Made by a program: the position numbers
Part shown: piece after piece, positions 21,601-27,600 of the stretch
Layout of the letters: every line of letters starts with the position of its first letter
How positions within the stretch are numbered: position 1 is the stretch's first letter
Source: Elusimicrobiota bacterium
GTDB taxonomy: Bacteria > Elusimicrobiota > Elusimicrobia > F11
DNA length: 30,982 nt
Assembly: GCA_046153645.1 (NCBI GenBank)
Contig: JBJXGI010000005.1
Coordinates: forward strand, 1 to 30,982
Reading direction: 5' to 3'

Positions 21601-24600
21601 CCAAAGCACTTCATGGTCTTTCTAGAAAATTGGTTTTAAACATGATTGAAGGGGTAACAAAAGGATTTGCAAAGAGATTATTTGTTGAAGGGGTCGGATT
21701 TAGAACAGCTATTGCTGGTAATAAACTGACAATGACTCTTGGATTTTCTCATCCTGTGATTATGGAAATCCCTAAAGATGTTCAGATTAAAATCGACCCT
21801 AAAACTCCCAATATTCTTTCTATTGAGGGAAATGATAAGCAACGAGTAGGACAAATCGCTGCTCAGATTCGTTCTGTTAAAAAACCAGAGCCCTATAAAG
21901 GTACTGGTATTCGTTATGAAAACGAAATAATTAAGCGTAAAGCTGGTAAGTCCGCTGTTGGCTCCACCGGTGGTGGAGGTAAAAAATAATGAAGTCCGTT
22001 GCTCAAAGATTTGAATTCAGAAAACTTCGCGTTAGGAAAAAAATATTTGGTACTGCTGAACGACCGCGTGTTTCTGTTTTTCGTAGTTTAAAAAATATTC
22101 ATGCGCAGATAATCGATGATGTAAAAGGTGTAACTCTTCTTTCAGTTTCAAGCCTTCAAAAAGGTTTCGAAAATGGGAATGGAGTTAAAAAAGCTAATTT
22201 AGTTGGTCAAGCGCTCGCTAAAAAAGCTTTAGAAAAAGGAATTGAAAAAGTTGTTTTTGATCGTGGCGGTCGTGTGTATCACGGACGAGTGAAAGCTTTG
22301 GCCGATGGTGCTCGAGAAGCTGGTTTAAAATTTTAATTTTAGAAGGTAAATTGGATGAATAAAATTGACACAACAAATATGACATTGACTGAAATCGTAA
22401 TTAAGGTTGGCCGCGTCGCAAAAGTTGTTAAGGGTGGAAAAAGGTTTTCTTTTAATGCCTTGGTTGTTGTCGGCGATGGCGCAGGGCATGTTGGAGTCGG
22501 ATTGGGCAAAGCAAAAGAAGTTCAATCTGCGATCAAAAAAGGTTCATCACAAGCAGCAAAAGAATTATTTAAAGTTCCTCTTGTGGGACAGACAATTCCG
22601 CATGAATCAGTTGGAAAGTTTGGGGCAGGTGCTATTTTATTAAAGCCCGCAGCTCCTGGAACAGGTGTTATTGCTGGCGGATCTGCCCGTGCTGTTTTAG
22701 AAGCCGCTGGTGTAAAAGATGTTTTGACGAAATGTCTTGGTAGTCGGAATCATTTTAACGTCGTATATGCAACGGTTAGTGGTTTACAAGCTCTTAAAAC
22801 TGCGGAAGAAATCTCGCGTTTAAGAGGAAAAACAATTGAGCTCGATCGAAAATTTGGAGATTCCCATGTGGTTACACAAAATTAAACCTGCTCCTGGTTC
22901 TCGCACCCCTAGAAGAATTGTGGGTCGAGGAGAAGGAAGCACATTAGGTCAAACAGCTGGCAAAGGTCAGAAAGGTCAGTCAAGCCGAGCCGGTGACTCT
23001 GTTATGACTGGATTTGAAGGGGGACAAACTCCTTTAATTCGACGAATTCCTAAAAGAGGTTTTAATAACCCCAGACGCATTAATTATGCCGGAGTTGATG
23101 TGAAAGTTTTAGAAGTATTATTTAAATCCGGCGATGAAATTAATGGTCAAAACTTATTTCAGAAAGGTGTTTTAAAAAACCCTCATGTACCTTATAAGAT
23201 TCTTGGAAAATCCAAAATTACCAAATCATTTAAAGTTAATGGTGGGAAACTATCTCAGTCGGCTCAGAAAGTCATTCAAGATGCCGGCGGATCTATTGCT
23301 GAGAAATAATTAAATGCTTCAGTCTTTTGCCGACCTTTTTAAAATTAAAGAATTAAGAGCCCGCATTCTTGTTGCTTTGGGCGTTGTTATTATTTATCGC
23401 CTTGGTGTTATTGTCCCCATTCCCGGCGTAAATGCGGATGCCATTGCTTTACTTTTTAAAGGACAGTCTAATAACCTTTTGGGATTTTTAAATATCTTCT
23501 CGGGTGGTGCTTTATCGAGGATGTCTATTTTCTCGATGGGTATTATGCCTTATATTAATGCTTCCATTATTATGAGTTTATTGCAGGGCGCTCATGTTAT
23601 TCCTTATTTGGATCAGCTAGCCAAAGAAGGAGAATCAGGAAGGAAGTCATTAAACCAAATCACTCGGTACTTAACTGTTATTTTGGGTATTATTCAATCT
23701 TTTGGTTTAACACAGCTTATTTCGAGGTTACCTCTTCCAGGGGATGTGCCGACTGTTTTGAATCCCGGTATTTCTTTTACTTTAATTACGATGGTAACCC
23801 TCGTTACTGGAACTGTATTTGTTATGTGGCTTGGTGAACAGATTACTGAGCATGGTATAGGAAATGGAGCATCGATTATTATTTTTACCGGAATTGTCGA
23901 AGGGATTCCTTCTTCTATCGTCAATTTATATAGAGATGTTTTCGACCTTCAACAGCGCAGCTTGTTCGGAATGATTTTTATTATTGCTTTTATTTTGGTT
24001 GTCATTGGATTGGTTGTTTGGCTTGAAACAGGTCAGCGTCGAATTCCAGTCCAATATGCCAAACGTGTTGTGGGGCGAAAAATGATGGGCGGTCAAAGTA
24101 CTTTTTTGCCTCTTAAAGTGAATCAATCTGGCGTTATTGCTGTTATTTTTGCGGTTTCCATTTTGTCCTTTCCTGTTACGATTGCGGCATTTTCTCCTCA
24201 ATCTGCATGGGCGCAGAGCATCAATAGATGGTTTAATGGCACTCAAATTTGGTATGAAGTTGTTTATGCTCTTTTGATTGTTTTCTTTTGTTACTTTTAT
24301 AATTCCGTATCATTCAACCCAAAAGACATTGCAGACAACCTAAAGAAATGGGGCGGTTTTGTGTTGGGTATTCGTCCTGGTGATCAAACAGCTACGTATT
24401 TAGAAAACGTGATGGAGCGAATCACTTTGGGTGGTGCTGTTGCTGTGGCGGCGTTGGCTGTTCTTCCCACTATTTTACAGCATCAGTTTAATGTGCCGTT
24501 TTTCTTTGGTGGAACTTCTATTCTTATTGTTGTCGGTGTGGCTTTAGATACCATGAGTCAATTAGAATCTCACCTGATCATGAAACATTATGATGGATTT

Positions 24601-27600
24601 ATGAAATCAGGTCGTGTTGAAGGGCGTAGTCGTGGACGCTGGTACGCTGCTTGAATATAATTTTTTTAGGTCCCCCTGGTTCTGGAAAGGGAACTCAAGC
24701 GAAGCAATTAGCGGAGAAAAAAGGTTTAACACACTTGTCCACTGGCGATTTGTTTCGAGAAAATATTTCAAAACAAACTGAATTAGGGAAAGAAATTAAA
24801 TCTTATGTCGACTCGGGAAGATTGGTGCCAGATGAATTGGTTTCCAAAGTGGTCTTTGAAAAAATTTGTGATAAAAGTCAGATTAATTCATTTCTTTTAG
24901 ATGGATATCCGAGAACGGTAGACCAAGCTAAGGCTCTAGATCTTTTTTTGACAAAAAACAATTTAGTTGTTGATGCTGTGATATTTTTTGATGTTGATTT
25001 TTCTGAATTAGTGAATCGATTATCCGCTCGAAGAACTTGCGCTAAATGTAAAGAAGTTTTTAATTTAATTAACAAGTCTCCTAAGAAAGAAAATATTTGT
25101 GATAGTTGTGGTGGAGAGTTGATTCAGCGTCCCGATGATAAAGCTGAAATTGTGCAAGATCGATTAAGAATTTATAAAAAACAAACAGAGCCGATTTTAG
25201 TGCACTATAAAAACTCTTCTGGGTTTATTCAGGTTAATGCTGGTCAAGGTATTGAAAAAGTTTATCAAGATATTGATTATGCGTTATCTGTTTTAAAATG
25301 ATTTTTATCAATGAATTTAGTTTCAAGAAAGCCAGGCGTTGAGTTAAAAACAGCAGCAGAAGTTTCATTGATGCGTAAAGCTGGTGAGTTGGCCGGTCTT
25401 ACTTTAAAAGAAGTAGAAAAACACATCGCGGCTGGAGTTTCAACTCAAGATTTAGATAAGGTTGCAGAAATTTTTATAAAGAAAAATGGTGGGATTCCTA
25501 CTTTTATTGGTTATCGTGGTTATCCCGCTACTTTATGTGTTTCCATTAATCAAGAGGTTGTACACGGAATCCCAAACTCACGAACGATTATCAAAGAGGG
25601 CGATGTTGTTAGTGTAGATGTGGCAGCTACTGTTGATGGTTTTGTTGGAGATACTGCTTTTACGAAAATTGTTGGTCATGCCAGTTCTAAGGATCAAAAG
25701 CTAGTAGATGTGACAAAAGCTTCTTTGGATGCTGCCATTGCGGTGTGTCAACCAGGAATGAGATTGGGAGACATTGGTTTTGCCGTTCAAACAGTTGCTG
25801 AAGCCGCTGGTTTTGGAGTCGTTAGAGATTTTGTTGGTCATGGAATTGGGCGAAAAATGCATGAAGAGCCTGCTGTCCCCAATTATGGTAAACCCGGAAC
25901 AGGTCTGAGACTAGAAATCGGAATGGTTATAGCGATAGAGCCGATGGTCACTTCCGGTTCTTGGAAAGTTAAAGTGCTGAAAGATGGTTGGACAGTGGTT
26001 ACTGAAGATGGATCAAATGCCGCACATTTTGAGCATACTGTGGCCATAACAGATAAAGGTCCTATTGTTTTAACACAGGTGGTTTAATGGCTAAAGAAGA
26101 AAAAATAGAAGTAGAAGGCACGATTTTGGAAGCACTGCCCAATGCGATGTTTAAAGTAGAGATGGAAGGCGGGCATAAAGTTTTGGCGCATATTTCAGGA
26201 AAAATGAGAATGCATTACATTAAAATTCTTCCTGGTGATAAGGTGAGAGTTGAGCTTTCCCCTTATGATTTGACGAGAGGAAGAATTACGTACAGAGAAA
26301 AGTAAGTTTAATATAGAAGTTCGGAGGCTGCTTTGAAAGTGAGAGCATCAGTAAAACGTTTGTGCGATAAGTGCAAAGTAATAAAAAGAAAAGGTCGTGT
26401 TTATATTGTCTGTGAAAGCAGTCGACATAAACAACGACAAGGATAAGGGGTACCACATGGCCAGAATTTCAGGCGTCGATTTGCCAAAAGCAAAAAGAGT
26501 AGATATTGCTCTTCGTTATATTTATGGTATTGGTCCTTTGCGGGCAAATAAAATTTTAGAGATTACCGGAATAAACCCCGCAACTCGCGTAAAAGATTTA
26601 ACCGAATCAGATATATCTAAAATCACTGGTGAAATTACCAAGTCTTACCGTGTTGAAGGTGATTTAAAGCGTGAAGTTCAAGCCAATATTCGCCATTTAA
26701 TTGAAATTAATTCGTACCGAGGATTTCGTCACCGAAGAAATCTTCCCGTCCATGGACAGAGGACAAAAACCAATGCCCGTACAAGACGCGGACGACGTCG
26801 AACAGTTGGTTCATCTAAGGCAGGAGAATAAAAGATGGAAGAAAATAAAGAAAACAAAAAAGCAAAAGCTGCAGATGGCGCAAAATCAGAAGGCACAGAA
26901 AAGCCAGCAAAAGCAGCAAAACCTGCTGATCGGCCAGTTAAAAAGAAAAAAATTGTCCGTGATGTTTCAATGGCAAGAGCCTATGTTCAGTGTACTTTTA
27001 ATAACACAATTATTTCTATAACTGATACCTTTGGTGGAGTTATTTCTTGGGCATCAGCTGGCAGTGTTGGTTTTAAAGGAACAAAAAAAGGAACCCCTTT
27101 TGCCGCTCAGGTGACAGCAGATAGAGCTTCAATCAAGGCAAAAGAAGCAGGTGTTCGGCAAATTGTTGTTTATGTAAAAGGCCCTGGATCTGGTCGTGAA
27201 ACGGCTATTCGTTCTTTGCAAGCAGCTGGATTTACAGTGACTTTAATTCGTGATGTGACTCCCATTCCCCACAATGGTTGTCGTCCACCAAAACCACGAA
27301 GAGTATAAAATTTTAGAATGATGTATCAGGAGGAATTACTTTGGCTCGTTATATAGGACCCGTTTGTAAATTATGTCGCCGAGAAGGCTCTAAACTTTTT
27401 TTAAAGGGAGATCGTTGTTTTACTAAGTGCCCCATCGACAAACCTACCGGTGCGGTTCCTCCTGGACAGCATGGGAAGATGAGATCAAAATTGACCGAAT
27501 ACGGTAAACGTTTGAGAGAGAAACAGAAAACAAAACGTATTGCTGGTCTTTTGGAAAGATCATTTTTTGGTTATTTTGAAAAGGCGCAACAAATGCCAGG

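Follow-up and report, generated by a model that had tools for sequence, protein, structure and literature searches.

The signal recognition particle (SRP) delivers membrane proteins to the export channel and is supposedly universal; few proteins are as strongly conserved as its GTPases. It is lacking in the reduced endosymbionts Carsonella, Hodgkinia, Tremblaya, Zinderia and Sulcia (PMC4779614) and in most mitochondria (PMC8321541), where Ffh/FtsY and SRP RNA have both been lost, as in the Elusimicrobiota genome described here. Their genomes are tiny and encode only a few membrane proteins, and all of them rely on a host, whereas the present genome is of 2.63 Mb and 99.7% complete, shows no extreme reduction, and has approximately 11–15% of its bases in giant multi-spanning open reading frames. 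For the phylum Elusimicrobiota itself, Elusimicrobium minutum was listed without SRP RNA (RF00169/RF01854) and SRP protein by Matelska et al. (2016, PMC4779614), the same absence in the same phylum. As it appears in that paper, the mention takes up a single sentence and concerns one small genome, listed alongside Dehalococcoides and the reduced endosymbionts; the analysis given here takes in a 2.63-Mb genome from another order, 401 genomes, and the parts of the translocon. Harris & Goldman (2021, PMC7987157) found few Elusimicrobia with SRP homologues, proposed that other proteins had taken over, and suggested long SecY branches as compensation; in their treatment of the phylum SRP RNA, which was searched for here, was left aside. 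As the survey's finding had anticipated, the absence is therefore partly in print already; the loss, though real, is not new; going by the passages of these papers on the phylum, it has been briefly noted but never explained.

Several ways of living without SRP have been described. The bypass in Streptococcus mutans relies on YidC2, an additional YidC whose long, basic tail binds the ribosome. This species is viable without SRP (PMC8546722) and resembles the present case in inserting membrane proteins without Ffh/FtsY; it keeps the SRP genes and has the second YidC, whereas here the SRP genes are gone and there is one short-tailed YidC. E. coli survives complete SRP loss through translation-slowing mutations (PMC7844537, PMC8299109), and these suppressors likewise tolerate the loss with no new targeting factor. 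They are, however, laboratory strains, mutated in their translation machinery and reduced in fitness, while the loss in Elusimicrobiota is natural, phylum-wide and probably ancient. Also in E. coli, SecA targets RodZ co-translationally (PMC5674894), and its ribosome binding, at uL23, resembles that of SRP (PMC6692507). Judged by sequence, the SecA helix and Cys/His tail, uL23 and, of SecYEG, the SecY subunit used by this route all have counterparts here; the route is minor beside SRP in E. coli, whereas here it would carry the whole membrane proteome.

The genome analysed comprises 2,626,138 bases in 105 contigs (completeness 99.7, contamination 1.73). Neither Ffh nor FtsY, nor an M domain, nor SRP RNA is present in it: searches with Pfam, NCBIfam and Rfam models, with phmmer and with unfiltered profiles all upheld the survey's claim to this effect. 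The SRP54 GTPase model PF00448 reached 18.4 bits at best (cut-off 22.7; controls 14/14), with all 26 matches of E<=10 confined to model positions 2–56, the P-loop region. The eight best of these matches, considered as Ffh or FtsY, are instead six T2SSE ATPases, one Mur ligase and one Mrp/NUBPL ATPase. The M-domain model PF02978 gave a single match of 13.5 bits (E 0.185; cut-off 27; controls 14/14), and the best scores to TIGR00959 and TIGR00064 were 15.6 bits (cut-off 473) and 16.8 bits (cut-off 261), respectively. At E<=10 the genome has no match to the small SRP RNA model RF00169 (controls 13/14, the one missed being Bacteroides) or to RF01854 (controls 12/14). When queried with sequences from elsewhere (three Ffh, two FtsY, one FlhF, all of other genomes), the 23,674 open frames of at least 40 aa gave no phmmer hit at E<=10, except for a 12.9-bit P-loop match to FlhF. 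Unfiltered hmmsearch of all open frames yielded at most 11.5 bits for Ffh and 18.4 bits for the SRP-GTPase profile, and an M-domain profile built for this work, also run unfiltered, 9.7 bits (E 1). The motif set G1...DTAGR...TKxD occurs in no open frame of the genome, and no ffh lies upstream of rpsP.

The same absence is found across the phylum, which was sampled, the best 15 first-look candidates per genome being scored in protein scans and the best 25 in RNA scans. The survey had found the M domain in none of 201 genomes; this now stands at 0 of 401, from 123 genera, at E<=0.001 (controls 14/14), including 293 genomes of at least 90% completeness and at most 5% contamination. Single-contig genomes are among these negatives, and SRP-negative genomes in the phylum reach 4.6 Mb. 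Small SRP RNA, previously reported in 0 of 121 genomes, exceeded the RF00169 gathering threshold in none of 150, two matches of 16.8 and 17.9 bits being at chance level. The search for the SRP54 GTPase, which by the survey's own caveat had covered only the order, was extended to 201 genomes, and its sole full-length match (144.9 bits) is the flagellar FlhF, as indicated by 223 bits to TIGR03499, scores under cut-off for the ftsY and ffh models, and a flhA-flhF-minD-like-fliA locus. The next 11 best PF00448 matches were assigned to thymidylate kinase, Era-type GTPase, T2SSE, ParA, NifH-like, helicase, recombinase and MeaB proteins. Ffh and FtsY are absent from the cultured Elusimicrobium simillimum Sma112 and from a record titled Elusimicrobia, whereas both are present, Ffh at 557–589 bits, in three MAGs from other phyla (Nitrospinota, Acidobacteria and Eisenbacteria) that served as controls of comparable assembly type and whose SecY is related to a similar degree. 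That the loss is not an assembly gap is borne out by the count over 401 genomes, by the unfiltered searches of the genome itself, and by these positive MAGs beside a negative isolate. Neither this genome nor any other that was sampled from the phylum has the SRP pathway (Ffh, FtsY and SRP RNA); the absence is genuine and most likely goes back to a single loss, which the common ancestor of Elusimicrobiota either underwent or inherited. One Ffh (OGS35541) and one FtsY (OGS33922), filed under Elusimicrobia by Harris & Goldman (PMC7987157), would count against a phylum-wide loss if their source genomes belong to the phylum as now classified.

The window, that is, the whole 30,982-nt stretch of DNA analysed, contains secY between rplO and adk at the end of the spc ribosomal-protein operon, which is its usual position (Table 1); its only RNA genes are those for 23S and 5S rRNA. 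The adk P-loop accounts for one weak PF00448 match (13.1 bits, at 24654–24800). At the ribosomal exit site, SRP, trigger factor and SecA usually dock on uL23. The survey's identification of SecY is confirmed by 374.9 bits to PF00344 over the full length of the model (positions 1–306 of 306) and by a 399-bit match of E. coli SecY (5abb_A) across residues 11–439, in which the cytosolic loops TM6/7 and TM8/9 align without gaps. Identity to SecY of the Nitrospinota, Acidobacteriota and Eisenbacteria records is 45–53%, and the protein is about as near to E. coli SecY as are the SecYs of other phyla. In contrast to the long SecY branches described by Harris & Goldman (PMC7987157), Elusimicrobiota SecY is full length, at 341–386 bits, in 149 of 151 genomes searched. 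SecY being undiverged across these genomes, its divergence is therefore no general correlate of SRP loss.

Table 1. Translocon, ribosomal exit-site and neighbouring genes in the 30,982-nt window.
Gene	Position	Strand	Product and evidence
rplW (uL23)	15951..16229	+	92 aa; ordinary length, no extension; PF00276 95 bits, model 2-86 of 86
rpmC (uL29)	18988..19197	+	69 aa; exit-site protein of ordinary length; PF00831 58.9 bits
rplX (uL24)	19848..20177	+	109 aa; exit-site protein of ordinary length; PF17136 72.5 bits, KOW 26.6 bits
rplO (uL15)	22836..23309	+	directly upstream of secY; PF00828 39.7 bits
secY	23314..24654	+	446 aa; ATG start; canonical SecY translocon subunit
adk	24651..25301	+	adenylate kinase; overlaps secY stop; PF00406 174.7 bits
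map	25311..26087	+	methionine aminopeptidase, nascent-chain enzyme of the ribosomal exit; PF00557 171.2 bits

Besides SRP, the export machinery is conventional in sequence, and of the components named by the survey SecA, YidC, SecD, SecF and TatC were recovered in the genome, YidC together with YidD. SecA, of 895 aa, scores 1066 bits against TIGR00963; against E. coli SecA (chain 6s0k_h) it scores 848 bits and aligns at the N-terminus from residue 2, so that the N-terminal helix is included; its C-terminus ends in a Cys-x-Cys...Cys-His tail of the zinc-finger, metal-binding type. Trigger factor is also encoded (357.6 bits). No adaptation was found in SecA, SecY or YidC that marks them off from those of SRP-bearing bacteria, and secY, yidC and rpsP lie in conventional surroundings. 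The known bypasses were also sought. Of the 12 genomes in the order, 11 have a single YidC match each (PF02096), and in all 11 sequences the tail after the last membrane segment is of 13–16 residues with 1–3 Lys/Arg; neither a second paralogue nor a long basic C-terminal tail was found among them. SecB (PF02556) was not found, the best score being 11.6 bits, and neither was ArsA/Get3 (PF02374), which gave only N-terminal P-loop matches of 22–27 bits in ParA-type proteins.

The membrane-protein load of the genome is heavy. By a crude Kyte-Doolittle count of hydrophobic segments, made with no topology predictor, 30 open frames of at least 2000 aa with at least two hydrophobic 19-mers occupy 12.1% of bases (10.7–14.7% depending on threshold), which reproduces in order of magnitude the 12% given by the survey for giant polytopic membrane proteins. 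The largest frames have up to 10,189 codons and up to 45 hydrophobic segments, and many of the giant proteins have no Pfam family. SRP is considered indispensable for a load of giant multi-spanning proteins such as this.

It can be soundly inferred, as the survey held, that membrane proteins are targeted here by a non-SRP route, and the replacement is most likely SecA together with direct docking of ribosomes on the translocon. Membrane proteins would then reach SecYEG and YidC with no dedicated targeting particle: by means of its conserved N-terminal helix and its metal-binding C-terminal tail, SecA on the ribosome would pick out signal anchors at the N-terminus or transmembrane segments further in, as has been described for RodZ in E. 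coli. Translating ribosomes also have an affinity of their own for SecYEG and YidC, which would contribute, and slow translation would probably assist. Once the first signal of a giant protein had engaged the channel, later segments would insert co-translationally with no further targeting, so that one targeting event would serve thousands of residues. Counting against this route are the want of distinguishing adaptations in SecA, SecY and YidC, the retention of trigger factor, a competitor at the exit site, and the load of giant proteins on approximately 11–15% of the genome. Taken jointly, the absence of SRP, its ancestral loss and its replacement by SecA and ribosome docking form an account that is considered fairly likely.

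Among other explanations, the absence could be only apparent, produced by binning, by assembly or by the search tool, given that the genome is in 105 contigs and that most of those searched are MAGs. This is extremely improbable in view of the 99.7% completeness, the absence of the M domain from all 293 genomes of high completeness and low contamination, the negative single-contig genomes, the 14/14 controls, and the contrast between a negative cultured isolate and three positive MAGs from other phyla. Scarcely more credible is that Ffh, FtsY and SRP RNA are all present but too divergent for every model. RF00169 misses the Bacteroides control, 1 of 14, so divergent SRP RNAs do escape it, and the phylum scans depend on a first-look filter. 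The SRP GTPases are, however, highly conserved; the same models detect the FlhF paralogue within the phylum and Ffh in the MAGs of other phyla; the unfiltered searches of the genome itself peak at 18.4 bits, with best matches belonging to other families; and the negative result holds over 401 genomes and 123 genera.

With SRP gone, there may be essentially no co-translational targeting, with trigger factor and general chaperones holding proteins until SecA/SecYEG and YidC insert them post-translationally. The presence of trigger factor and SecA and the lack of a targeting particle fit this account, but it is improbable, as proteins from frames that reach 10,189 codons and as many as 45 hydrophobic segments would hardly stay soluble until complete, and no SecB or Get3-type holdase was found. 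Unlikely, though less so, is the replacement of SRP by a non-homologous, unrecognised targeting factor or ribosome–membrane tether, a protein or RNA outside current family models. In its favour are the missing compensations (one short-tailed YidC, no SecB, no ArsA/Get3), exit-site ribosomal proteins of ordinary length, an undiverged SecY, and the heavy membrane-protein load; moreover, with so many giant proteins outside Pfam, unrecognised functions are plentiful. Against it, no candidate emerged, the secY, yidC and rpsP neighbourhoods being conventional, and E. coli and S. mutans are reported to live SRP-free with no new factor (PMC7844537, PMC8299109, PMC8546722). If such a factor did exist, co-translational membrane targeting would have been solved a second time, independently, in this phylum, and the cultured E. 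minutum and E. simillimum would permit its direct isolation.

Whichever route is used, what is new here is the phylum-wide scale of the SRP absence, the lack of the known bypasses (a single short-tailed YidC, no SecB and no Get3), an undiverged SecY, and the occurrence of that loss alongside giant multi-spanning proteins that take up approximately 11–15% of the genome.

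SRP, the signal recognition particle, is taught as universal and, for the majority of bacteria, as essential. The secY gene of this window serves only as an anchor for the present finding, which concerns what the genome around it is without. That genome is an assembly of 105 contigs totalling 2,626,138 bases, with a completeness of 99.7 and a contamination of 1.73, and the survey's finding that it encodes no Ffh, FtsY or SRP RNA holds by Pfam, NCBIfam, Rfam, phmmer and unfiltered profile searches. With the SRP54 GTPase model (PF00448), 26 matches reached E ≤ 10; the highest score among them was 18.4 bits (cut-off 22.7), and every one fell inside model positions 2–56, the P-loop region. 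The Ffh M domain (PF02978) had a sole match of 13.5 bits (E 0.185). The full-length NCBIfam models reached 15.6 bits for ffh (cut-off 473) and 16.8 bits for ftsY (cut-off 261), and the SRP RNA models RF00169 and RF01854 were without any match at E ≤ 10. In the same searches, 12 to 14 of 14 control genomes were positive. The best eight PF00448 matches belong to other families, namely type II/IV secretion ATPases (six), a Mur ligase and an Mrp/NUBPL ATPase. The PF02978 match (C49:5423-5668) lies in an open frame of 172 aa located where a contig ends, is under the cut-off, and was missed by a self-built M-domain profile.

Searches independent of the first-look filter gave the same picture. When three Ffh, two FtsY and one FlhF sequence from other genomes were used as phmmer queries against the 23,674 six-frame open frames of at least 40 aa, nothing was found at E ≤ 10 save one 12.9-bit P-loop match to the FlhF query. 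With all HMMER filters off, self-built profiles reached at best 11.5 bits for Ffh, 9.7 bits for its M-domain part and 18.4 bits for the SRP-GTPase family. SRP GTPases carry the motif set G1, DTAGR and TKxD, a combination present in none of the open frames of at least 100 aa. The usual location of ffh is upstream of rpsP, where this genome has parA, parB and a mutY-like gene (named by eye), and no ffh.

The absence extends across the phylum, in samples of Elusimicrobiota for which the best 15 (protein) or 25 (RNA) first-look candidates were scored per genome. The M domain had been noted as missing phylum-wide, as had the small SRP RNA; here the former was found in none of 401 genomes from 123 genera at E ≤ 0.001, 293 of these genomes being at least 90% complete and at most 5% contaminated, and RF00169 reached its gathering threshold (40 bits) in none of 150. 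Two RF00169 matches of 16.8 and 17.9 bits (E 0.76 and 0.86) are at chance level. The GTPase model, previously run on the order only, was extended to 201 genomes of the phylum, with some match at E ≤ 0.01 in 153 and 20 above the 22.7-bit cut-off. Its sole full-length match (144.9 bits, positions 2–192; the runner-up scored 25.2 bits) lies in genome G121, in a protein that scores 223 bits on the FlhF model TIGR03499 (cut-off 174), and 108 and 96 bits on the ftsY and ffh models, far under their own cut-offs. Flanked by the C-terminus of FlhA, a MinD-like ATPase and a sigma factor of the FliA/WhiG kind, this protein is FlhF.

The next 11 PF00448 matches of the phylum are a thymidylate kinase, an Era-type GTPase, T2SSE ATPases, ParA, NifH-like, helicase, serine recombinase and MeaB proteins. 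Mid-domain matches in 350-aa and 444-aa frames from another family of the phylum were candidates for degenerate SRP GTPases. Of these, the 352-aa frame encodes an Era-type GTPase that carries a KH domain, and the 444-aa frames, judged by eye, resemble MnmE and adjoin an MnmG-like gene; the frames in loci L030 and L031 were likewise judged by eye. The G121 locus itself (C51:10977-14537) is an flhA-flhF-minD-like-fliA flagellar cluster; no other FlhF-type match was seen in the 201 genomes scanned, so flagellar clusters with FlhF appear rare in Elusimicrobiota.

Comparable assemblies from other phyla yielded SRP proteins readily. On the ffh model, metagenome-assembled genomes (MAGs) gave Ffh at 589 (Nitrospinota), 573 (Eisenbacteria) and 557 bits (Acidobacteria), with the FtsY of the same three at 217–242 bits, while nothing was found at E ≤ 0.001 in Elusimicrobia bacterium RIFCSPLOWO2_02_FULL_39_32 or in the cultured Elusimicrobium simillimum Sma112. 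Assembly type is therefore no explanation for the absence of SRP. The nearest relatives of the window SecY in named records (78, 71, 65 and 62% identity) are titled Elusimicrobiota or Elusimicrobia, and the SecY of Nitrospinota, Acidobacteriota and Eisenbacteria records is 45–53% identical to it.

The rest of the export machinery is in place, as the survey had stated for SecY, SecA, SecDF, YidC and Tat. The secY gene stands at its usual position, between the neighbours tabulated below, and its product aligns with E. coli SecY (5abb_A) at 399 bits over residues 11–439, free of gaps in the TM6/7 and TM8/9 cytosolic loops. SecA (C101:31283-33970, minus strand; an 895-aa frame, 1066 bits) aligns with the E. 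coli chain 6s0k_h at 848 bits from residue 2, and ends in a C-terminal Cys/His tail of the metal-binding type. A single YidC of 526 aa lies within a yidD-yidC-mnmE arrangement, and SecD, SecF, TatC and trigger factor (357.6 bits) were also found. TatC was found in eight of the 12 genomes of the order and is missing from G148, a 99%-complete relative in which the remaining export parts occur, so possession of the Tat pathway may vary within the order. Two other genomes of the order, G402 and G318, hold giant open frames with a SecA-like motor region in addition to their normal SecA: G402:C122:2661-4256 (2068 codons; 115 bits on the secA model, positions 4–473) and G318:C116:11363-12022 (2373 codons; 105 bits, positions 261–472). 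A second secA-model match of this kind was not found in the present genome.

Features of the window, with example giant open frames from other contigs of the genome
Feature	Location	Strand	Remarks
23S rRNA, 3' part	window start		1036 bases
5S rRNA	1154-1270		
285-codon ORF	1288-2145		hydrophobic N-terminus; without Pfam family; rplJ directly after
rplO	22836-23309		directly before secY
secY	23314-24654	+	446-codon ORF, ATG start; Pfam SecY at 374.9 bits, model positions 1-306 of 306
adk	24651-25301		overlaps secY; followed by map and infA
giant open frame	C86:11315-41881		
giant open frame	C79:12477-38690		
giant open frame	C38:32998-56205		

Besides these features, the window contains rplJ-rplL-rpoB-rpoC and the S10/spc/alpha ribosomal-protein genes. 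In the 1-2676 region, rplJ has neither rplK nor rplA before it, an unusual neighbourhood. The tuf gene often sits between fusA and rpsJ; within 12075-14501, a 691-codon ORF (putative fusA) ends at 14150 and the next ORF (putative rpsJ) starts at 14163, both named by position and length, which leaves no space for tuf.

None of the bypasses sought was found. Streptococcus mutans and mitochondria dispense with SRP thanks to a YidC/Oxa1 whose long basic tail binds the ribosome, whereas the order has neither a second YidC nor a long-tailed one: 11 of its 12 genomes had a YidC match, each with a single copy, and the tails are of 13–16 residues with 1–3 basic residues. SecB and ArsA/Get3 were not found in the genome, and no extended uL23, uL29 or uL24 in the window, where these exit-site proteins have ordinary lengths (92, 69 and 109 aa).

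Nor was a divergent SecY found, either in the window or among 151 genomes of the phylum. Harris & Goldman 2021 (PMC7987157) proposed, from long Elusimicrobia branches, that SecY itself had compensated, and Lewis & Hegde report dropping three “highly divergent Elusimicrobia” SecYs from that dataset. SecY was present in 149 of the 151 genomes, full length and at 341–386 bits, equal to any phylum, a count that includes one contig-end fragment of 229.6 bits (G163); weaker second copies were rare. The published sequences are accordingly either rare paralogues, for which such second copies may be the source, or belong to genomes that the present definition of the phylum excludes. SRP loss here is without SecY divergence as a general correlate. 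One such second copy, in G072 of the same class (C66:14874-15836), scores 206 bits over the full model length in a 423-codon frame, and G004 also has two SecY matches.

The load placed on this machinery is heavy. The genome has 93 open frames of at least 1000 codons (23.4% of bases) and 34 of at least 2000 codons (14.2%), and 30 of the latter, with at least two strongly hydrophobic 19-mers, occupy 12.1% of bases, of the same order as the 12% earlier attributed to giant polytopic membrane proteins. The longest runs to 10,189 codons and contains 45 hydrophobic 19-mers. A layout common to many places a hydrophobic segment inside the first 30 residues, next a stretch of approximately 600 residues, and after it several hydrophobic segments clustered together. 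A Pfam scan of eight giants returned nothing in two, and in the rest only isolated methyltransferase, helicase, UDPGP, NUDIX, M23 or sigma-70 region 4 pieces.

Neither the particle nor its receptor or RNA is thus left, and the proteins that act as channel, motor and insertase are of conventional type. In such a cell, SecA would probably take over targeting, with a further contribution from the affinity that translating ribosomes intrinsically have for SecYEG and YidC. An exported N-terminal head on such giants would require SecA regardless; with the first signal engaged, later segments would be tethered at the channel, and thus a single targeting event could serve thousands of residues. Co-translational targeting by SecA has been reported for RodZ (PMC5674894), SecA and SRP have, by the title of one study, a similar mode of ribosome binding (PMC6692507), interaction with nascent substrate is reported to involve the SecA C-terminal tail (bioRxiv 10.1101/389460), and E. 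coli is described as tolerating complete SRP loss if translation is slowed (PMC7844537, PMC8299109). These reports support the feasibility of a SecA or direct-docking route.

The most interesting alternative is a non-homologous, unrecognised targeting factor, for which the lack of any known compensation and the heavy membrane-protein load both speak, but no candidate emerged and its existence seems unlikely. Purely post-translational insertion is a more doubtful proposition, being hard to reconcile with frames that run to as many as 10,189 codons. Given the unfiltered searches, the fact that FlhF was detected, the controls on MAGs and how broadly the phylum was sampled, it is very improbable that SRP parts are present in forms so divergent that the models miss them, and even less probable that the absence is an artefact.

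The absence of SRP is real and would still surprise most specialists, although it is partly in print and this is not its first report. One sentence of Matelska et al. (PMC4779614) names E. minutum and Dehalococcoides spp. as SRP-less; the latter, if true, would add a second lineage that lacks SRP and is not endosymbiotic. Harris & Goldman 2021 describe the system in few Elusimicrobia members, with a single Ffh and a single FtsY accession in their supplement (OGS35541 and OGS33922), and call a targeted study merited. No fuller account of the loss in Elusimicrobiota was found in the literature searched, and further supplements may bear on the question. What is new is the scale (401 genomes for the M domain, 150 for the RNA); the GTPase model taken to the phylum, with its above-threshold matches identified; the MAG and isolate controls; the ordinary SecY, SecA and YidC, with SecB and Get3 absent; and the contrast between SRP loss and the genome's heavy burden of giant membrane proteins.

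Both ffh and ftsY are in common use as universal marker genes. For Elusimicrobiota these markers will always be missing, and surveys of diversity that rely on SRP, the COG0541 tree of PMC11740963 being one, are blind to the phylum. A whole phylum of non-reduced bacteria, partly cultured, lives without Ffh, FtsY, SRP RNA or any known bypass, and at least the present organism makes multi-spanning proteins thousands of residues long. What is minimally required to deliver membrane proteins to the translocon can now be tested directly in a natural system, as opposed to crippled laboratory mutants.
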